A DNA stretch of 64,000 nt, from the NCBI GenBank assembly GCA_964425075.1, contig CAYRKM010000002.1, positions 64,058-128,057 of the forward strand. Reading direction: 5' to 3'. This document shows positions 7,809 through 50,622 of this stretch, piece by piece. The notes below the pieces were generated by a model, which was not told the origin of the DNA, did not search any database, and was given only the letters and a program-made list of their open reading frames with translations. The stretch comes from an uncultured Gammaproteobacteria bacterium (GTDB taxonomy: Bacteria > Patescibacteriota > Microgenomatia > Levybacterales > GWA1-39-11). Numbering within the stretch: the first letter of the stretch is position 1; every line of letters starts with the position of its first letter. Both the position numbers and the translations under genes were made by a program.

Positions 7809-10800
7809 TTGAGTATTATGGAGACTTTACATTCCGGTTTTGATCATCCTCCCGTTGGTCCTGCTCCACATCCTGATTCTTCAGGTAGACCCGTCACCCA
7901 CCCACTTCCTGGCGAGCTAGATGGGGAAGGAATGCTTGATCCAACATCTTTGGATTTCTGGCGAAATCTTCATGCTAACCTTACAGGCTTTATAAGCAAG
8001 AACTATCCCTTTTCAGATTTCCTTAAGAATTTCGATAGTGAGAAAGGGAAAGTGGGTCGCACACATTCAAATGGCGATACAAACGCCACATACGCATACC
8101 TTAATGCAATTTATAAACAGCGTTCATTCTCGCATCCCGGCCATCCTACTCTTGAGCAGCATATCGTCTCGCAATTCACACCTCCTACAGATGACCCCGA
8201 CTTTGCTGAAATTGTTGAAGAAACCCGCTCTCTTATTAGACAGCGTTTTCCAGAACATCAGCTTCCTAGAACGACAAGTCTTGTCAAGCTCCAAGATCCG
8301 GAATTTTGGAGCGAATTTGAGGATGAGCTTTCAAAAACTCCTTCGAGTTCAATATTTGCGGATTTTTTAAAAGGAGGAGGTGGCCTTTCTGAAGACGGTA
8401 GTCAGATGCAGGGAAAGTATCATGATGTCTGGCTTGATATATACGATCCTCGGGGTAGAACTGAATTTAGAAATGCATATAAGGAACAAACAGGAAGAGA
8501 TATAGATACTGATTCTGCAAGAGACGCTCAGAGGATTTTCTTCGAAGTAGCACCAGCACGTATAAAAGCACAGCTTATTAAGAGATATCCGAGAATTTTT
8601 AGTGGATTTGCAGTAGAGTGGGTAGGAAATTCTCAATTACCAAAAGCTGCCCAGGCTGTCATTAACACTCTCGGGTGGTTAGGTGAAGATAACCGAAAAA
8701 AAATACTTGACGTACTTTCGAAATATGTGCATATAGAAACAAGTAGTACTTCGGGTTTTGATTTTTCTGCTGAAGATACTAGCATTATTCTTGGACAAGC
8801 AGCAGAACAATCAGAAGTTGTAGCAGCAGAAGTTGGTCCGCCAACACTCGAAACTATTATTCGAGACGCAACTAATACTTTTCAGCTTGTTGAACAAGAA
8901 AAGTTGGATAATGGGAATTCTGAAAATGAACAACTGTCAAGTGAGCTAACAGCTGCCCTTGAAACATCCTATCTTTACCCAACACTTCGTAATGTTTTAT
9001 ATAAACCTTTCGCACTTTTTTGGTCAAAATATCTGGAGACTCATGGTGGGTCCTCTGTTCCCGAAGATGAAATGAGAAGTTTTCTTGACACATATGCACA
9101 TAATGAAATTGCTCAAACATCTCTATCGCCCGAAGAGCAGCAAATGCTTGAGCGTCTTAAAAAAAATGTTTTTTCCACTATTTTTAGTGAATTTATAGAA
9201 ATTGCAAATTACTCTTCTCAAATTAATCACTTCAGGGAAAGAAGCATCGACGGGAAAGCAAAGCATCTGTTTTTTCATCAGGTTGAGGGAATTAAGCATC
9301 TTGTCGAAAAAGGCGCCGGAATTTTAGCTGATGAACCAGGAACCGGCAAAACAGTGACCCTTGCGCTCGCAGCATTAAATCGAGTTGACCAAAAATTTCG
9401 AGAACCTGGAAAAATAGCAAGGGTGCTAGTTGTTGGATCAAAAACTGTTAATAACAACTGGGAGGAAGAACTTGAAATGCATGTTGCGCCAGGTGATGTC
9501 GATACAGTAAATTTCAATTCTGACGAACTTGCACAGTTAAGCCAGGCAAAACGCCTTGAAATAATGGCACAAAGATTGAAAAATCCTACAGCGGATAGAC
9601 AAGTTTTGCTTGTCAATTACGATCTGTTTCGCAATTCATTTTTTCAGGAACTCCTTCATTCTGCAGGAATTGACTGTACAATAATTGATGAAGCTCATAA
9701 TGTAAAATCGCGTTTTATGGATTCTATTGCTGAGCATAACGACGACACGTCCCATAATGCTCGACTTGCAAAACGCACAACAAATCTTTATAGATTTCTT
9801 CTTTCCAACCCGAATATGGATGTTTATTTGGGTACTAGCACTCCCTTCGTCAAAGAATTAATAGAGCCGCTTATCATGGGTCACCTGGTCGATAGGTGGA
9901 GTCTTCCAATTGACCGGGTTTCAGCTTTAAGGGAGGATCCTGCTGGAGCAAATTTGGCACTTCGTGAAGTAATGATTCGGCGACGAAAGGATGCAATCAG
10001 CGATATCCCCCCAAAAGACACAGACTTTATACCAGTAGACTTAAGCCTACTTAGTGCTGCGGAACGCTCGGAGCTTGTTTCATTGGGCCTTGATATAGAA
10101 AGAGCCGATGAAAGCTCTTTCAGAAGATTTTTTTCCATGTTGTCTATTGAAGCTCAAGCAAAAATGCCCTGGCTTATTGAGAAAATAAACGAGTTAACAT
10201 CTGATGGAAGAAAGGTAGTTGTTTTTACTCCATTCGTTAATGACCAGGAAAGACTTACAGCCTCAATAAGTACGAAGGCTATTGCAAAGCGACTTATTGA
10301 TTCAGGAATTACCTCTGTTGGAGTTCTTGATGGAACTTTAAGTGAAAGCGAAAAACTTGCTGTTCAAAGAGATTTTCATGACCCGAATGGGGTAAGAGTT
10401 TTGGTAGGTAATTATCAAACGGCAGGCGAATCAATTACACTTAATTCGCCTTTCAATAGAGCAACTGAAGTAATTATACTCGTTGCACCAAACACAATAA
10501 GTAGATACATTCAAGCAATTGATAGAGTGCATAGAATCGGACAAGATGAGAAGGTTACTATTCACGTGCCTTTTCTTACGGAAGACCCTATCGCAAGGCC
10601 AGACGGAACATATGACAGACGAATTGTTAGTCGAATGCTTAGAGAACTTTCACTCTTTAATGCTGTTGTAGATGGTTTATTTTTTGTTGAAGCTGCAGAT
10701 TATTACGATGAAATTAGACGGGGAAAAAACGGAAACTCAGAACCAAGAACCGCTCTTGAAAGTGGACAAACAGTTCGTTTGGATACAGAACAGAAGCCTC

Positions 10801-12245
10801 CTGCTGCTACTAAAAAAAGGGGCTTAACTCGGGATGTTTTTGACCAAAACACTGACGGAGCAATAGTACTACCAACAAGCAGAGAGGTAAATTTAAACAG
10901 TATTGGCATAAATCACACACGACATCACCAAATAGACAGAGAGGAAGCTTTGGCAATTACAGATTACTTCGACTCAGTGAGTCAATACCCTCTCCTTACA
11001 GTTGAGCAAGAACGTATAGCATTTAGATATCTAACTGAGGGAAAATCTGTCGCACAACTTCGTGATGATGGAGCATTTCTTGCGGCAAATCCTCGTAGCA
11101 CTGCAAAAATGCTTGCTGTACTTTCCGATAGTCGCTCCGTTAGAGATGTACTTGTTGCCTGTAATTTGAGACTCGTTGCCTCAATAGCAAATAGGTACAA
11201 AGGAAGACTTCCTTACACTGACCTGCTCCAGGAGGGAAATATTGGATTAATTAAGGGAATTGACGATTTTGACCCTGAGCGTGGATTAAAGCTTTCAACA
11301 TATGCAACCTGGTGGATTAAGCAATCAATAAGGCGTGCTATTGCTAATACGTCCCGAACTATTGACTTGCCTGTACACATGCATGAAATGGTCACAAAAA
11401 TGGTGCGTGTTTCAAATGAATTTTTTAGTAAACACCAGCGCTATCCATCTATAGAGGAGCTGGTTTCAGAAGGGTTTACTATATCCCAAGTTAACACAGC
11501 TATGCGCATAGCACGACTTGGAATTTCCAACCCCTCATCTCTTGATAGAACAATAGACGATGATGGTGAAACCACAATCGGGTCATTTGTTTCGGACGAA
11601 GGTGATCTTGAAGAAGAAACTATAGCCGCGATGGAAGAGGCTGAGCAAAGTCATATCGTTGGGCGTGCACTTTTATCTTTAAGCGAACGGGAACAGTTGG
11701 TGCTTACTCTTAGATTCGGGCTTGATGGTTCTGGCACTAGAACCCTTGAACAGGTTGGTAAAGAAATTGGTGTGACAAGAGAAAGAGCACGACAAATAGA
11801 AGTTAGTGCCCTAAAAAGACTTCGAGTAAATACCGGGCTTAGGGAGGCATACGATGGAGATTCCCCAAGTTTGCTTTGGTCAAGGGAAGTCTTGCCTACA
11901 AACGTATTGCCTCTTAGACCAGGGCCAATAGACATTGAGAGGGTCTCAGCAATCTCACAAGCTCAAGAAGTAGAAAGGTTGGAGGAGGAGAAAAACAGTC
12001 TTGAATTTGGCAGACAAGTTGTGGAACAAATAAAAATGGTACCTGATATATGGAATGCTTTAACTGATAGAGAGAAGACGCTTTTGACTCTTTATTTTAA
12101 AGGCACATTTGACCACAACACTACTAAAAGTAGACTTTCAAAAATCTTTGGCATAACCGAACAAGAGCTGTCTGTTTACATCGAGTATTCTGTTGCTTCT
12201 CTAGCCAAACACGTTGGTATGACATCCTCTGAGCTTCCTTCTTGA
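7809..12245 (+). CDS. fusion protein: unknown N-terminal region + SNF2-family ATPase + complete sigma-70 + extra C-terminal region-4-like HTH
   Basis: Single 1478-codon ORF with no internal stop. The track start is TTG at 7809, and an ATG lies at 7818. SNF2 motifs: LADEPGTGKT, IIDEAHNVK, QAIDRVHRIGQ. Sigma motifs: YPLLTVEQE, LLQEGNIGLIKGIDDFD, TYATWWIKQSIRRAI, TIDLPVHMHE, VTRERARQIEVSALKRLR. Confidence 0.85.
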   Translation: MSIMETLHSGFDHPPVGPAPHPDSSGRPVTHPLPGELDGEGMLDPTSLDFWRNLHANLTGFISKNYPFSDFLKNFDSEKGKVGRTHSNGDTNATYAYLNAIYKQRSFSHPGHPTLEQHIVSQFTPPTDDPDFAEIVEETRSLIRQRFPEHQLPRTTSLVKLQDPEFWSEFEDELSKTPSSSIFADFLKGGGGLSEDGSQMQGKYHDVWLDIYDPRGRTEFRNAYKEQTGRDIDTDSARDAQRIFFEVAPARIKAQLIKRYPRIFSGFAVEWVGNSQLPKAAQAVINTLGWLGEDNRKKILDVLSKYVHIETSSTSGFDFSAEDTSIILGQAAEQSEVVAAEVGPPTLETIIRDATNTFQLVEQEKLDNGNSENEQLSSELTAALETSYLYPTLRNVLYKPFALFWSKYLETHGGSSVPEDEMRSFLDTYAHNEIAQTSLSPEEQQMLERLKKNVFSTIFSEFIEIANYSSQINHFRERSIDGKAKHLFFHQVEGIKHLVEKGAGILADEPGTGKTVTLALAALNRVDQKFREPGKIARVLVVGSKTVNNNWEEELEMHVAPGDVDTVNFNSDELAQLSQAKRLEIMAQRLKNPTADRQVLLVNYDLFRNSFFQELLHSAGIDCTIIDEAHNVKSRFMDSIAEHNDDTSHNARLAKRTTNLYRFLLSNPNMDVYLGTSTPFVKELIEPLIMGHLVDRWSLPIDRVSALREDPAGANLALREVMIRRRKDAISDIPPKDTDFIPVDLSLLSAAERSELVSLGLDIERADESSFRRFFSMLSIEAQAKMPWLIEKINELTSDGRKVVVFTPFVNDQERLTASISTKAIAKRLIDSGITSVGVLDGTLSESEKLAVQRDFHDPNGVRVLVGNYQTAGESITLNSPFNRATEVIILVAPNTISRYIQAIDRVHRIGQDEKVTIHVPFLTEDPIARPDGTYDRRIVSRMLRELSLFNAVVDGLFFVEAADYYDEIRRGKNGNSEPRTALESGQTVRLDTEQKPPAATKKRGLTRDVFDQNTDGAIVLPTSREVNLNSIGINHTRHHQIDREEALAITDYFDSVSQYPLLTVEQERIAFRYLTEGKSVAQLRDDGAFLAANPRSTAKMLAVLSDSRSVRDVLVACNLRLVASIANRYKGRLPYTDLLQEGNIGLIKGIDDFDPERGLKLSTYATWWIKQSIRRAIANTSRTIDLPVHMHEMVTKMVRVSNEFFSKHQRYPSIEELVSEGFTISQVNTAMRIARLGISNPSSLDRTIDDDGETTIGSFVSDEGDLEEETIAAMEEAEQSHIVGRALLSLSEREQLVLTLRFGLDGSGTRTLEQVGKEIGVTRERARQIEVSALKRLRVNTGLREAYDGDSPSLLWSREVLPTNVLPLRPGPIDIERVSAISQAQEVERLEEEKNSLEFGRQVVEQIKMVPDIWNALTDREKTLLTLYFKGTFDHNTTKSRLSKIFGITEQELSVYIEYSVASLAKHVGMTSSELPS
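9264..10583 (+). other. SNF2/Swi2-type helicase core (N-lobe plus Helicase_C lobe) inside the fusion ORF
   Basis: aa ~486-925. Walker A LADEPGTGKT (nt 9324-9353), DEAH box IIDEAHNVK (nt 9681-9707), motif III-like LGTSTPF, motif VI QAIDRVHRIGQ (nt 10512-10544). Confidence 0.8.
10938..11828 (+). other. sigma-70 regions 1.2, 2, 3 and 4 inside the fusion ORF
   Basis: aa ~1044-1340. By eye this aligns block for block with RpoD-type sigma factors, including the region 2.4 and 4.2 recognition helices. Confidence 0.85.
12036..12218 (+). other. second region-4-like HTH at the C-terminus of the fusion ORF
   Basis: aa ~1410-1470. LTDREKTLLTLYFKG...SRLSKIFGITEQELSVYIEYSVASLAKHV parallels the upstream LSEREQLVLTLRFGL...LEQVGKEIGVTRERARQIEVSALKRL. 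Confidence 0.55.
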
Positions 12246-12281
12246 ATAATTCTAGCCTAAGGTGTAATATTCTTCGATATA

Positions 12282-13505
12282 ATGGCTGTAGATTTTTTTA
12301 GATACTACGTAAATCAAGAATTAATAAAACAAGCATCCGAGCTTAGCTCCAAAATCTCACAACTCTCCCTTGGTGGTCAACAAGAAGAAGCAGTGAGAAG
12401 AATGAGAGAAGCGAGACTTATATTGGAGAAAGTAAGAGGAGTTGATGCTCTAACAAACCAATTTCTTGAAGGACTCGAAGGCTTAGGAATTGAGCAACCT
12501 CCAATCAGTATTTTCTCATCCCCACCGGTCTCGCTTGAGCCCGGGATACCTTCTACAATTCCTGAAGTCACAGAACCCGAAATCCCTTTAGCATCAGGCT
12601 TCGAGACACTTCCTGATGAAAAAAAACATGCGGCAGAACCTGAGACAGATAATGCACAACTAAAACTAGATGACTTGCCTTTAGTTAAAAATGAAAGAAG
12701 AGCTCGTCGTGATTTGGGTGAAATAGAAGAACGTGTTGCATTTGCGCTTTTTGCAATTAATAGAGAGGGTAGTAATTTTGCTTTTCCTACCTATAGAGAA
12801 GTTGCTGAAGCAGTTTATGAAGGCAACACCGTAAATACAAATTATGTCAAAATGTCCGTAGCCAGAATTTTTGAAAAATTTGAGACTTTTAGTAGAAATC
12901 CTGATAATTCTTTACCTGTGCTTCAGAATTTCTACGACTGGCTTGGAACCATTTCTCAATACTCACAGGGGGAAATTCCTATTGAGGTGTTTGAGTCTAT
13001 TGCCTTACGTAAAATATCTTTTGAAGAATTCGAGGCACTTCTGAAAAATGCAGCTCCCCAAGAACCCTCCGGAAGTGATGAGTCTTCATATTTAACTTTA
13101 CCAACAACCGACACGAAAGATAACGAAACTTGGGAAGAAGAGAACCCACAGCCGATTCTTAACTTTCCTGAGATAGACATGCTTTGTCAGGTTATGCTAA
13201 GTGTTCGCAAGGATTTACTTAAGGAAGCTGGACTTGGGTGGCAGGACAGTGACTTTATGGAAATTGAGGGCATTGCAGAAAGACTAGGAATACAGGAGGG
13301 AGGTTCTGATATGGAAGCGCTGTTGCAGTCACTTAGACAAAAATTGGCAATTTTCCTACAAGCAAAGGAGGCCACTCTTGTTGTAAATGCAGACAATGAA
13401 GCAGCTCTAGCGTTATTATTCTTACTTTCAGATATAAGCTCTCAAGAACATCTCGATAAACTATTTGCTTCATTTGTAGCTCAAGCTGCAATAAACATGC
13501 ATTAA
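12282..13505 (+). CDS. hypothetical acidic protein with a sigma4/LuxR-like HTH segment
   Basis: 407-aa ORF 36 nt downstream of the fusion gene on the same strand. aa ~146-201 (nt 12717-12884), GEIEERVAFALF...PTYREVAEAVYEGNTVNTNYVKMSVARIFEKF, fits an HTH pattern. The rest is unrecognised. Confidence 0.6.
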   Translation: MAVDFFRYYVNQELIKQASELSSKISQLSLGGQQEEAVRRMREARLILEKVRGVDALTNQFLEGLEGLGIEQPPISIFSSPPVSLEPGIPSTIPEVTEPEIPLASGFETLPDEKKHAAEPETDNAQLKLDDLPLVKNERRARRDLGEIEERVAFALFAINREGSNFAFPTYREVAEAVYEGNTVNTNYVKMSVARIFEKFETFSRNPDNSLPVLQNFYDWLGTISQYSQGEIPIEVFESIALRKISFEEFEALLKNAAPQEPSGSDESSYLTLPTTDTKDNETWEEENPQPILNFPEIDMLCQVMLSVRKDLLKEAGLGWQDSDFMEIEGIAERLGIQEGGSDMEALLQSLRQKLAIFLQAKEATLVVNADNEAALALLFLLSDISSQEHLDKLFASFVAQAAINMH

Positions 13506-13871
13506 CTAAGATATTATCTTAAAACCCAATACCAAAACTCTATCATCGTCTTTTACATTCTTACCATAATATTTTTCAAATACTTTTCTTTGCTCTTCTT
13601 TGGAAGAATAAACCTCATGACCATTTCTATCTATTAGTAATTCTTCGAAAATAGTCCAATATTTTTCAATGATTTTAACTTTCGCAAAAGGCTTTCCTGT
13701 TTGACTATCTTTTACCATGATTTCATCCTCAATATTTAGAAAGTCGTACTTGTTTCCTAAGCGGTAAGTGAGTGTTTTGGAGCCATTAAGAATGAGAGGA
13801 ATTAAGTCTGTAGCAAAACCTATAGCTGTATTTTTGAAAAACATAGAAGATTTATGCGTGACATTGCTCAA
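13506..13871 (-). CDS. ASCH-domain protein
   Basis: 121 aa. LILNGSKTLTYRL and the overall size and pattern fit the ASCH (PUA-like) fold. Confidence 0.65.
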   Translation of the reverse strand: MSNVTHKSSMFFKNTAIGFATDLIPLILNGSKTLTYRLGNKYDFLNIEDEIMVKDSQTGKPFAKVKIIEKYWTIFEELLIDRNGHEVYSSKEEQRKVFEKYYGKNVKDDDRVLVLGFKIIS

Positions 13872-44618: not shown

Positions 44619-45869
44619 ATGGATGATTTAGCACCAAATGACCACAAAAGACTTGGCCGCGAACTTGGTCTTTTTACGTTTTCCGACACTGTAGGAAAAG
44701 GACTGCCACTTTTTACCCCAAAAGGCTCAGTTATTAGACGCGAGTTAGAGCGTTTTATTGTTGACGAGGAGTTAAAGCGAGGCTACCAACACGTATATAC
44801 CCCTGACATTGCAAAGCTTGAATTGTATAAAAAATCAGGACATTATCCCTACTACAAAGACTCTATGTATGCCCCAATCACTATAGAGGATGAGGAATTT
44901 ATGCTTCGTCCCATGACTTGCCCTCATCATTTTGAGCTTTATCTTACTCGTCCACATAGCTACAAAGAACTTCCAATGAGAATCGCAGAGCTTGCAAAAC
45001 TGTATAGATTTGAGCAATCAGGTGAGCTAATGGGCCTGCAACGCGTACGGACATTTTGCCTAGCTGATGCCCATATTATTACCTCGCTTATAAATGTTGA
45101 AGAGGAAATCCAAAGCGTCCTTGATCTTATTGAATTTATTGCAAATACATTCAAACTCGAACAAGGAAAAGACTATCGTTATCGATTATCTTTGGGGGAC
45201 AGGAAGGACAGTAAGAAATACTTTAAAGATGATGCTTCTTGGGATATGGCAGAGAAAACTTTAAAAAAGGTATTAACCGACAGAAAAGCTCACTTTGTTG
45301 AAGCTGAAAATGAAGCAGCGTTTTATGGTCCAAAAATTGATATTCAAATGAAAAACACTAATGGTAAAGAGGATACAGCCTTTACTGTCCAGCATGACTT
45401 TGTTATGCCAAAACGTTTTGAATTAAGATATATAAATGAAAAAGGAGAAGAAGAGCAACCTGTTGTCATACACCGCTCATCAATTGGTGCAATTGAGCGT
45501 GTGATGGCTTTTTTAATAGAACACTATAAAGGCGCTTTCCCAATGTGGTTATCCCCTGTCCAGGCGGTTGTAATGGCAGTTTCTGATAAGTTTGATGCAT
45601 ACGCAAAAGAAGTATTTGAGGAGTTAAAAAGCAATGGGATTAGGGTTGAATTCGACAATTCTAATAACACGCTTGGTAACAAAATCCGTGAGGCTACTTT
45701 ACAAAAAGTACCCTACATGTGTATAATAGGCGGTCAGGAAGAACAAGAGTTTAAAGAAAGTGGAAAAAGAGTAATTACAGTAAGAACCCGAGAAGGAAAG
45801 GATCTGGGCAAGAAAGAACTTGACGAATTTATCAAGGGATTAAAAAAAGAAATTGAGACCAAACAATAA
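44619..45869 (+). CDS. thrS: threonyl-tRNA synthetase, catalytic core plus anticodon-binding domain only
   Basis: The protein starts at the DHKRLGRELGLF motif. It has FMLRPMTCPHH and class II motifs and is 416 aa, with no TGS or editing domains. TGTTAGAAT ends 6 nt before the ATG. Confidence 0.85.
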   Translation: MDDLAPNDHKRLGRELGLFTFSDTVGKGLPLFTPKGSVIRRELERFIVDEELKRGYQHVYTPDIAKLELYKKSGHYPYYKDSMYAPITIEDEEFMLRPMTCPHHFELYLTRPHSYKELPMRIAELAKLYRFEQSGELMGLQRVRTFCLADAHIITSLINVEEEIQSVLDLIEFIANTFKLEQGKDYRYRLSLGDRKDSKKYFKDDASWDMAEKTLKKVLTDRKAHFVEAENEAAFYGPKIDIQMKNTNGKEDTAFTVQHDFVMPKRFELRYINEKGEEEQPVVIHRSSIGAIERVMAFLIEHYKGAFPMWLSPVQAVVMAVSDKFDAYAKEVFEELKSNGIRVEFDNSNNTLGNKIREATLQKVPYMCIIGGQEEQEFKESGKRVITVRTREGKDLGKKELDEFIKGLKKEIETKQ

Positions 45870-48669: not shown

Positions 48670-50622
48670 ATGAATATTTTAATACCAAACAGTTGGCTAC
48701 AAGACCATCTTAAAACAAATGCAACTCCTGAGGAGTTTGCACGAGAAATGAGTCTTACAAGTGTCTCAATTGAGAGAATTGAGAAGGTTGGTGATGACTC
48801 TGTCTTTGATATAGAAATTACAACAAACAGACCTGACCTAATGTCTATTCAAGGAATTGCAAAGGAAGCTTCTGCTATACTTCCCCAAGCAGGTTTCAAC
48901 GCTAAATATATACCCCATGAATATAGTAAGACTTTAAAAACTGTTGAAAAAAATGACTTGTTGACAATATCTTATGACAAATCATTTATTAATCGCATTA
49001 TGGCAGTTGTAATAGACGTAAACCTTCATGATTCGTTAGATATTATTCGTGACAGACTTGAAAAAACCGGCATTCGAAGTATTAACAATATAGTTGATGT
49101 TACCAATTACATAATGCGCGAACTTGGTCATCCAACTCATGCATTTGATTATGACAAATTACAAACCCATACACTAAACATCCGAGAGTCAAAAAAAGGT
49201 GAAAAACTTACAACCTTGGACGGAAAAGAATATATTCTTCCTGGGGGAGACATAATAGCTGACAATGGAAAGGGTGAAATAGTTGATCTCTTGGGCATAA
49301 TGGGAACTGATAATATCGCAATAACTACAGACACAAAACGAATTGTACTTTTTATTAATAACAGTGACAGACATAAAATAAGAAAAACTTCTATGGCCCT
49401 TGGAATCCGTAGTGAAGCTGCGGTTTTGAACGAAAAAGGGGTCGACCCAGAGCTTGCCTTTCCTACGTTACTTAGGGGGGTAGAGCTTTACAAAGAGATA
49501 GCAAATGGAAATGTAGTTGGAGAAATTATTGATATTTATCCAAATCCCTTGAAAACAAAAAGGGTAAATATCGAAAAAGAAAAAATAAACTCAGTAATTG
49601 GAGTAGAGATAAAAGACGTAGTCATAAAAGACATATTAACCAATTTGGGGTTTGGTGTTTCTCAAAAAAATAATAGCTTCGAAATCACGGTTCCATCAAC
49701 AAGAGTTGCTGATATAGATATTCCTGAGGATATAATTGAGGAAGTTGCAAGAGTATATGGATATACAAAAATTCCAAATTTGCTCCCAACATTACCACAA
49801 CAAGCATATTATCATCAAGATAAAAATGAATTTTATTGGATTTCCAAACTTAAAGACGCATTTCAATTTTGGGGTTTTAATGAGGTGTATACATATTCAA
49901 TGGTCGCTGAAGAATTATTTGATGGTCCAATAAGTAATGCCGTTAAACTTAAGAATCCATTAACCGAAGATAGAACTTATCTTAGAAATACTATCACGCC
50001 AAGCATACTTGAAGTTGTAAGGATTAATAAGAACCGAGAATTCCTAAAGCTTTTTGAAATTGCGAATGTATACGTAAAACAAGCCAAAGGACTTCCAAAC
50101 GAGGTGCTTCATCTTGCGGGAGTTATTAAACATTCAAACATCACTTTTTATGAAATCAAAGGAATTGTTGAGCAAATTTTCTATATTCTGGGTATTGATT
50201 CCTACTCATTTAAAAAACGCACTGACGGGCTAAATGGAGCTTTCATTGTTTATGATAAAACACATATAGGTGGAATTGAAATCGAGGATGGTGAAGCGAC
50301 ATTTGAGATTGATATCCAAGAGCTAATAAAAAACGCAACAACTCACAAAAAATACAGTGAACCTACAAAATTTCCACCGGCGATTGAAGATGTAAGAATA
50401 GAAGTTTCTCAGCATTATACTTTTAAAGAAATTGCAGATATTATTTCTTCTCAAGACGATAGAATAAAAGATGTTAGCTTGCTTGATGTATATCAAAACA
50501 AAAAGACTTTCCGTGTGATTTTTATGGACAGAACAAAAAATTTAACAGCGGAAGATATAACCCCCATGAGAGAGAGAATTTATAAAGCATTAGAGTCCAA
50601 TTTTAAAGCTAAAATAGGCTGA
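48670..50622 (+). CDS. pheT: phenylalanyl-tRNA synthetase beta subunit, short form
   Basis: Contains the B3/4, B5, FDX-ACB-like C-terminus and ITTNRPDLMS motif. At 650 aa it appears to lack the OB-fold tRNA-binding insert near the N-terminus. Confidence 0.85.
   Translation: MNILIPNSWLQDHLKTNATPEEFAREMSLTSVSIERIEKVGDDSVFDIEITTNRPDLMSIQGIAKEASAILPQAGFNAKYIPHEYSKTLKTVEKNDLLTISYDKSFINRIMAVVIDVNLHDSLDIIRDRLEKTGIRSINNIVDVTNYIMRELGHPTHAFDYDKLQTHTLNIRESKKGEKLTTLDGKEYILPGGDIIADNGKGEIVDLLGIMGTDNIAITTDTKRIVLFINNSDRHKIRKTSMALGIRSEAAVLNEKGVDPELAFPTLLRGVELYKEIANGNVVGEIIDIYPNPLKTKRVNIEKEKINSVIGVEIKDVVIKDILTNLGFGVSQKNNSFEITVPSTRVADIDIPEDIIEEVARVYGYTKIPNLLPTLPQQAYYHQDKNEFYWISKLKDAFQFWGFNEVYTYSMVAEELFDGPISNAVKLKNPLTEDRTYLRNTITPSILEVVRINKNREFLKLFEIANVYVKQAKGLPNEVLHLAGVIKHSNITFYEIKGIVEQIFYILGIDSYSFKKRTDGLNGAFIVYDKTHIGGIEIEDGEATFEIDIQELIKNATTHKKYSEPTKFPPAIEDVRIEVSQHYTFKEIADIISSQDDRIKDVSLLDVYQNKKTFRVIFMDRTKNLTAEDITPMRERIYKALESNFKAKIG

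Follow-up and report, generated by a model that had tools for sequence, protein, structure and literature searches.

A degenerate second sigma region 4 in an SNF2–sigma70 fusion protein as a candidate docking site for the product of the adjoining gene

Why should a sigma factor carry a second region 4 behind its own, and what has the gene immediately downstream to do with it? This question is raised by a locus in the stretch analysed here (64,000 nucleotides of contig CAYRKM010000002.1, hereafter the window), where a single open reading frame (ORF) on the + strand (7809-12245, TGA stop at 12243-12245) encodes a fusion of an SNF2 ATPase with a sigma70 factor (1478 aa), and where a second gene, ORF2 (12282-13505, + strand), follows after a spacer of only 36 nt (12246-12281, separating the TGA that ends the fusion from the ATG that opens ORF2) and encodes an acidic protein (407 aa, pI 4.46). 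The original prediction had read three helix-turn-helix (HTH) modules of the sigma-4/LuxR type into this region, i.e., the canonical region 4 of the fusion, a second segment of the same layout in the extension of about 140 aa behind it, and a third one within ORF2. Our analysis retains the first two, while the third remained at chance level in every test. The reading that we favour, with somewhat less than even confidence, is that the second module (r4′) represents a DNA-blind paralogue of sigma region 4 and the docking site for the operon partner encoded by ORF2, probably through one of its modules (M).

Sigma70 region 4 (PF04545) is the domain that reads the −35 element and binds the beta-flap. 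In the window fusion, the canonical copy (11667-11825, aa 1287-1339, + strand) is recognised by Pfam Sigma70_r4 with an E-value of 1.6e-17 and retains the −35-reading motif T-R-E-R-x-R-Q, and the polypeptide then continues for 139 aa (aa 1340-1478, + strand), in agreement with the extension first proposed. This extension opens with a linker (11826-12035, aa 1340-1409, + strand; delimited by alignment and an AlphaFold2 (AF2) model) in which a conserved ‘GD.PS’ motif after region 4 precedes a stretch of low model confidence and then a long helix (aa 1376-1409) running into r4′ (12036-12218, aa 1410-1470, + strand). The resemblance of r4′ to the window’s own region 4 is far above background in pairwise Smith-Waterman comparison (z = 6.8), as none of 2000 shuffles reached the score. 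Six r4′ modules were profiled, namely those of the window, of the relative P0002 and of the sigmas of loci L004, L006, L009 and L011, with the consensus IW..L(T/S).REK..L.LYF…RLS.IFG(I/L)(S/T)E.E(L/I). Compared by hhalign with six canonical copies, they aligned over 55 gapless columns with a probability of 89.8% (P 1.8e-6). Searched against PDB sequences, the same profile found domain 4 of S. aureus sigmaA first (E 6.9e-4), and its matches were mostly to sigma region 4, sigma factors making up 13 of the 20 matches listed. Pfam Sigma70_r4 matched four of the six modules under its gathering score (best E 0.0013), and the GerE profile of LuxR-type HTH domains gave no Pfam match in the tail of the window fusion. 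In the AF2 model of aa 1270-1478, built from a two-sequence alignment, aa 1376-1469 form the best-defined part (predicted local distance difference test, pLDDT, 74-83), and the helices that follow the long one (aa 1420-1429, 1436-1447 and 1451-1469) complete the order of a sigma-4 domain. On these comparisons, r4′ is a homologue of region 4 and a paralogue of the fusion’s own copy, and the model indicates that the four-helix sigma-4 layout is kept.

Does this second copy still read DNA? A gapless alignment places G-I-T-E-Q-E-L-S-V of r4′ opposite G-V-T-R-E-R-A-R-Q of the canonical copy, and E1451, Q1452, E1453, S1455 and V1456 of the window protein then stand at the positions of sigma70 R584, E585, R586, R588 and Q589 (E. 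coli numbering of the −35 contacts). The expected contact residues are missing and the recognition helix is acidic. Among eight orthologues (the six profiled modules and those in the sigmas of L013 and L014), the R586 position is occupied by E in all eight, the window included, the R584 position by E, L, T, H or V, the R588 position by S, D, E, I or Q, and the Q589 position by V, N, A, I, Q, G or E; a basic residue is conserved at none of the four. Since the recognition helix is acidic and the contact residues are gone, r4′ is unlikely to be a second −35 reader. A wider proposal sees in r4′ a second DNA-reading head, as the original prediction also offered, which would recognise an extra promoter element. 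It can call upon the sigma-4-type HTH of r4′ and upon relatives with longer sigma tails (up to 620 aa), which contain further HTH modules including a terminal, r4.2-like one with S-R-E-R-x-(R/S)-Q (L006f, L009f, L011f and L005), so that tail modules able to read DNA are plausible within the wider family. However, the tail of the window fusion, the shortest in the family, contains r4′ only and no SRER-keeping terminal module, and the acidic or neutral residues at the reading positions in the window module and its seven orthologues also speak against a second reader, which we regard as very improbable. As a separate observation, the canonical region 4 of the sigma upstream in L014 (L014:1-1581) is interrupted by ~25 inserted aa, located after the ‘RLGIG’ helix and ahead of the HTH.

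Despite identities of only 24-34% between modules, r4′ displays invariant positions (I1414, R1421, I1446, F1447 and E1453), which argues for selection on something other than −35 reading, and none of the eight sigmas with a readable tail and an M-containing partner downstream lacks it. The linkage to ORF2 is conserved as well. Twelve loci were examined (the window, L001, L004, L005, L006, L009, L011-L015 and L017), and in ten of them (the window, L001, L004-L006, L009, L011, L013, L014 and L017) a gene of the ORF2 family lies 36-95 nt downstream of a family sigma. The SNF2 part was confirmed upstream in six (window, L001, L006, L009, L011 and L017), the upstream sigma gene being cut by the contig end in the other four (L004, L005, L013 and L014), and the remaining neighbour genes vary from locus to locus. 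On the contig of P0002, the gene that comes next is orthologous to ORF2 (29% identity, E 5e-41). Thus, ORF2 is neither absent nor unlinked in the relatives, being linked in these ten loci and partly fused in one more, and the acidic protein keeps its place as a linked candidate co-factor. These data also bear on another explanation, that r4′ is a decaying, functionless remnant of a tandem duplication and ORF2 merely its neighbour. Pfam scores below threshold, the loss of functional residues and the short tail of the window protein would all fit such decay. However, decay hardly accounts for invariant I, R, I-F and E positions at such low identity, for r4′ being the sole tail element common to all eight sigmas with M-containing partners, or for a gene order kept in 10 of the 12 loci though the other neighbours differ, and we give this explanation almost no credence.

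The fusion and ORF2 are in the same frame, and an in-frame TAA stands four codons past the TGA, so the two are separate genes; read-through of the fusion’s stop codon was rejected on account of this TAA and because the L001 pair is out of frame. No terminator-like site was found between 7500 and 14200 (6.7 kb, either strand), shuffled sequences giving 5.7 ± 2.6, and we infer that the fusion and ORF2 are co-transcribed. Note that a convergent ORF of 121 aa (window 13506-13871, − strand) abuts the ORF2 stop without any spacer, and that its counterpart in L002 bears an ASCH-domain label.

What kind of protein, then, is the partner? ORF2 is unmatched in Pfam, NCBIfam, PADLOC and PHROGs, including the known anti-sigma and sigma-binding families (ASD/RsrA-like, FlgM, Rsd and others), and a word-indexed search returned no ORF2 homologue and P0002 (44% identity) as the sole relative of the fusion. 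An exhaustive profile search gave a family of 77 clusters with the architecture N, one to three M, and C. In the window protein, the N module (12282-12515, aa 1-78, + strand) is a TPR-like helical hairpin ending in G(I/L)EQPP, which is always located at the very N-terminus of family members, with M1 and A2 invariant. The M module (12699-13052, aa 140-257, + strand) is all-helical, measures ~125 aa in the family, has no known relatives and occurs in one to three copies per relative, and the C module occupies 13173-13505 with the stop codon (aa 298-407, + strand). Profiles of its modules returned nothing relevant from PDB. By these searches, ORF2 belongs to an undescribed and unannotated modular family. 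Twelve of the 77 members carry an OmpR/PhoB-type winged HTH (wHTH) domain (Trans_reg_C, PF00486, best E 1.5e-23), which places the family among transcription factors; Pfam finds no Trans_reg_C in the window ORF2. These wHTH domains either replace the M module or adjoin it, and M therefore occupies a place open to a DNA-binding domain.

This last point lends some colour to the claim that ORF2 is itself a DNA-binding protein with an HTH of the sigma-4/LuxR type, located at 12717-12884 (+ strand) within the M module. In addition to the genuine wHTH domains of its paralogues, a local motif likeness (L.E.EE.VAFALF versus LSEREQLVLTLRF) would favour it. However, ORF2 aa 144-203 score no better than chance against the canonical region 4 (z = 0.8, with 408 of 2000 shuffles reaching the score) and hardly better against r4′ (z = 1.4). 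Profile-profile comparison by hhalign gave a probability of 1.4% (P 0.037) for the M family against region 4. None of 50 M modules matched Sigma70_r4 or GerE at E <= 1, and no sigma or HTH protein in PDB matched the M profile at E <= 10. Furthermore, the supposed turn and recognition helix correspond in the family alignment to an indel-rich loop of variable length, which is shortest in the window protein. In all of these comparisons the HTH resemblance of ORF2 is at chance level, so that a heading of three HTH modules is unsupported, and a DNA-binding ORF2 of this type appears improbable.

A clue that connects r4′ with its neighbour is the joint occurrence of r4′ and the M module. Both are present in eight of the ten scorable loci (window, L001, L004, L006, L009, L011, L013 and L014) and both are absent in two (L017 and L015). 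In L017, the sigma stops before r4′ and the partner has the architecture N-wHTH-wHTH-C, and in L015 r4′ is missing from the sigma and M from the locus. Were the ten loci independent, Fisher’s test would give 1/45 = 0.022 for this pattern. This co-occurrence favours a partner-binding role among those first suggested for the duplicate. The copy has exchanged the basic, −35-reading face of region 4 for a conserved acidic face; in such a scenario, r4′ would no longer read DNA and would instead dock the product of the downstream, co-transcribed gene, most likely via its M domain. The ORF2 protein may then work as an accessory factor tethered to the sigma, in a family of which some members, in other lineages, have DNA-binding winged-helix domains of the OmpR/PhoB type. 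That r4′ physically binds M, and that this has a regulatory outcome, is inferred.

Several points weigh against docking. The ten loci are not phylogenetically independent, and the co-occurrence is therefore a lead and not a result. The family member P0030 in L012 has no sigma gene upstream. In L015, the protein P0069 (found on six contigs, one of them of 94.5 kb) has an ORF2-type C module (E 1.4e-30) at the N-terminus of a family sigma without SNF2, and while this fusion speaks for a tie between the ORF2 family and its sigmas, it is the C and not the M module that is joined to a sigma there. The Pfam score of r4′ is 18.1 bits against a gathering threshold of 24.1, and the AF2 model of ORF2, based on a two-sequence alignment, is unusable (pLDDT 39). 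Finally, ORF2 is acidic overall (pI 4.46) and so is the r4′ helix, so that simple charge complementarity offers no explanation of binding. As for P0069 itself (L015:10001-14158, 1385 aa), it contains about eight tandem HTH repeats ‘RELRNQGL.N.QIA..LG.S’ and three copies of a ~55-aa unit ‘YREILGQIPEGKFAAIRV…VEYQGRMAYVSWI’.

The strongest competitor to docking would dispense with the partner, r4′ regulating its own sigma in cis. It could do so as a decoy, contending with the genuine region 4 for the tip helix of the beta-flap, or else its acidic helix could cover a DNA-binding surface of the sigma or of the SNF2 motor in the manner of region 1.1 of sigma70; ORF2 would then act elsewhere or relieve the block. 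The hydrophobic core motifs of sigma-4 are indeed kept (L..RE..L.LYF and IF) with an acidic DNA face, the fusion lacks a recognisable region 1.1, and a precedent exists in extracytoplasmic function (ECF) sigmas, in which regulatory C-terminal extensions occur. However, regulation in cis leaves the joint presence or absence of r4′ and the partner’s M module unexplained, and the AF2 model of aa 1270-1478 reaches a predicted template modelling score (pTM) of only 0.39. We consider this alternative unlikely, although it deserves more weight than the others discussed above, and keep the docking of ORF2 on r4′ as the favoured reading.

The remainder of the fusion helps to define the kind of sigma to which r4′ is attached. 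The NCBI annotation starts the protein at an ATG three codons further downstream (1475 aa), and the fusion could be aligned over its full length with four relatives. Its N-terminal domain (7809-9248, aa 1-480, + strand) has no Pfam or PDB relatives; this domain contains the motif LYKPxALFW and is conserved in every full-length fusion. It is followed on the same strand by the SNF2 ATPase (aa ~490-950), in which Pfam recognises SNF2-rel_dom and Helicase_C at aa 490-911, and which is very divergent, as its sole match among PDB sequences is a Rad54-like protein (E 5e-6). The sigma70 part (aa 1050-1339, + strand) includes regions 1.2, 2, 3 and 4 in Pfam, and its best NCBIfam matches are the RpoD, SigA and RpoS models, all under their cut-offs. 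Region 1.1 is not recognisable by Pfam, since the SNF2 part sits on the N-terminal side. With regions 1.2 and 3 present and RpoD, SigA and RpoS as top models, the fusion does not fall into group 4, and by its Pfam regions the sigma is group-1/2-like.

A scan for LYKPxALFW over 185,579 GTDB species representatives found the fusion in only one other genome, the same scan of JGI metagenomes found one locus, and further motifs from the N-terminal domain gave no match in genomes or metagenomes. Variants of the arrangement were also noticed. A gene of ~550-610 aa occurs just upstream of the sigma in four loci (L006:2027-3799, L009:3-1601, L011:4787-6625 and L015:8346-9983; mutual identity 28-42%); stretches of it resemble the very beginning of the longer fusions, and it is absent upstream of the window fusion and in L001. 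In L006 (L006:547-12725, contig CAYTZB010000001.1), this upstream gene stands with the fusion and the ORF2-like gene between ftsA and ftsZ. P0003 (872 aa, from a Logan contig) has ankyrin repeats in place of SNF2, with a sigma part 40% identical to that of the window. The surroundings of the window locus are those of an ordinary chromosome, with ThrRS, PheT, PBP1A, MurF, RecG, RarA and 14 tRNA genes in 64 kb. Two of these genes are shortened, as ThrRS (416 aa, 44619-45869) covers only model positions 171-564 and PheT (650 aa, 48670-50622) only model positions 157-797, both without their N-terminal domains, as in reduced genomes; a Patescibacteria-like organism is suspected. A phage origin of the fusion was rejected, because it has no relatives on viral contigs and the flanking genes are housekeeping ones.

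Few bacterial proteins have been studied as thoroughly as sigma factors, yet the literature searched yielded no account of a group-1-like sigma with a tandem, DNA-blind region 4, of the fusion of SNF2 to a sigma, or of the pairing with a dedicated partner gene. The region-4 domain itself is known; what appears new is that it has been duplicated, has degenerated and is paired with a partner family not described before. If r4′ does dock a partner, sigma mimicry would be built into the sigma itself, and if this holds true, the N-M-C family would form a new class of sigma-associated factors. One may go further, in a bolder picture that we hold to be possible but doubtful, and imagine in this barely sampled lineage a remodelling machine that incorporates the RpoD-like sigma between an SNF2 motor and a decoy sigma-4. 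N-M-C adaptors would plug into the decoy via M, an undescribed sigma-4-binding fold; they would replace free activators and anti-sigmas, and OmpR-type domains would be swapped on the same scaffold. As the pair is small (a 100-aa tail and a 407-aa protein), it is accessible to direct in vitro work.

How does this arrangement compare with known systems? By NCBIfam and PADLOC, the best match of the fusion’s sigma part is MzaA, which represents the sigma-70 family in the MZA anti-phage system; however, the match is limited to the generic sigma portion (model positions 459-703) and reaches 237 bits where the cut-off is 800, and the locus has housekeeping surroundings and no Mza neighbours. Membership in MZA, Zorya, BREX or Dpd defence was rejected, since the NCBIfam and PADLOC matches are limited to generic sigma or SNF2 portions. 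Dedicated partners that bind the sigma-4 fold have precedents in Rsd, T4 AsiA, phage G1 ORF67, PhoB and the WhiB-family activators. ORF2 shares no sequence similarity with any of them (Pfam, NCBIfam, PADLOC, PHROGs and PDB), while 12 of the 77 members of its family contain OmpR/PhoB-type domains. Sigma-factor mimicry is known from PhyR, whose degenerate ECF-sigma domain binds the anti-sigma NepR and not DNA; in contrast to PhyR, which is a separate response regulator, the r4′ mimic is fused to the sigma, has no receiver domain, and its proposed partner is unrelated to NepR. As in ECF sigmas such as the ECF41 and ECF42 groups, a C-terminal extension follows region 4 and may act on the sigma in cis; however, these belong to group 4 and bear SnoaL-, TPR- or zinc-type extensions, whereas the fusion is group-1/2-like and is extended by a second region 4. 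RapA/HepA likewise ties an SNF2 motor to the transcription machinery, but as a free Swi2/Snf2 protein associated with RNA polymerase, whereas the motor of the fusion is covalently joined to a sigma and strongly diverged. Lastly, r4′ follows Sigma70 region 4 without gaps over ~55 residues, with the same helix order and the same hydrophobic core motifs, and departs from it as a second copy placed downstream of a functional one in the same polypeptide, with acidic or neutral residues where the DNA contacts would be.

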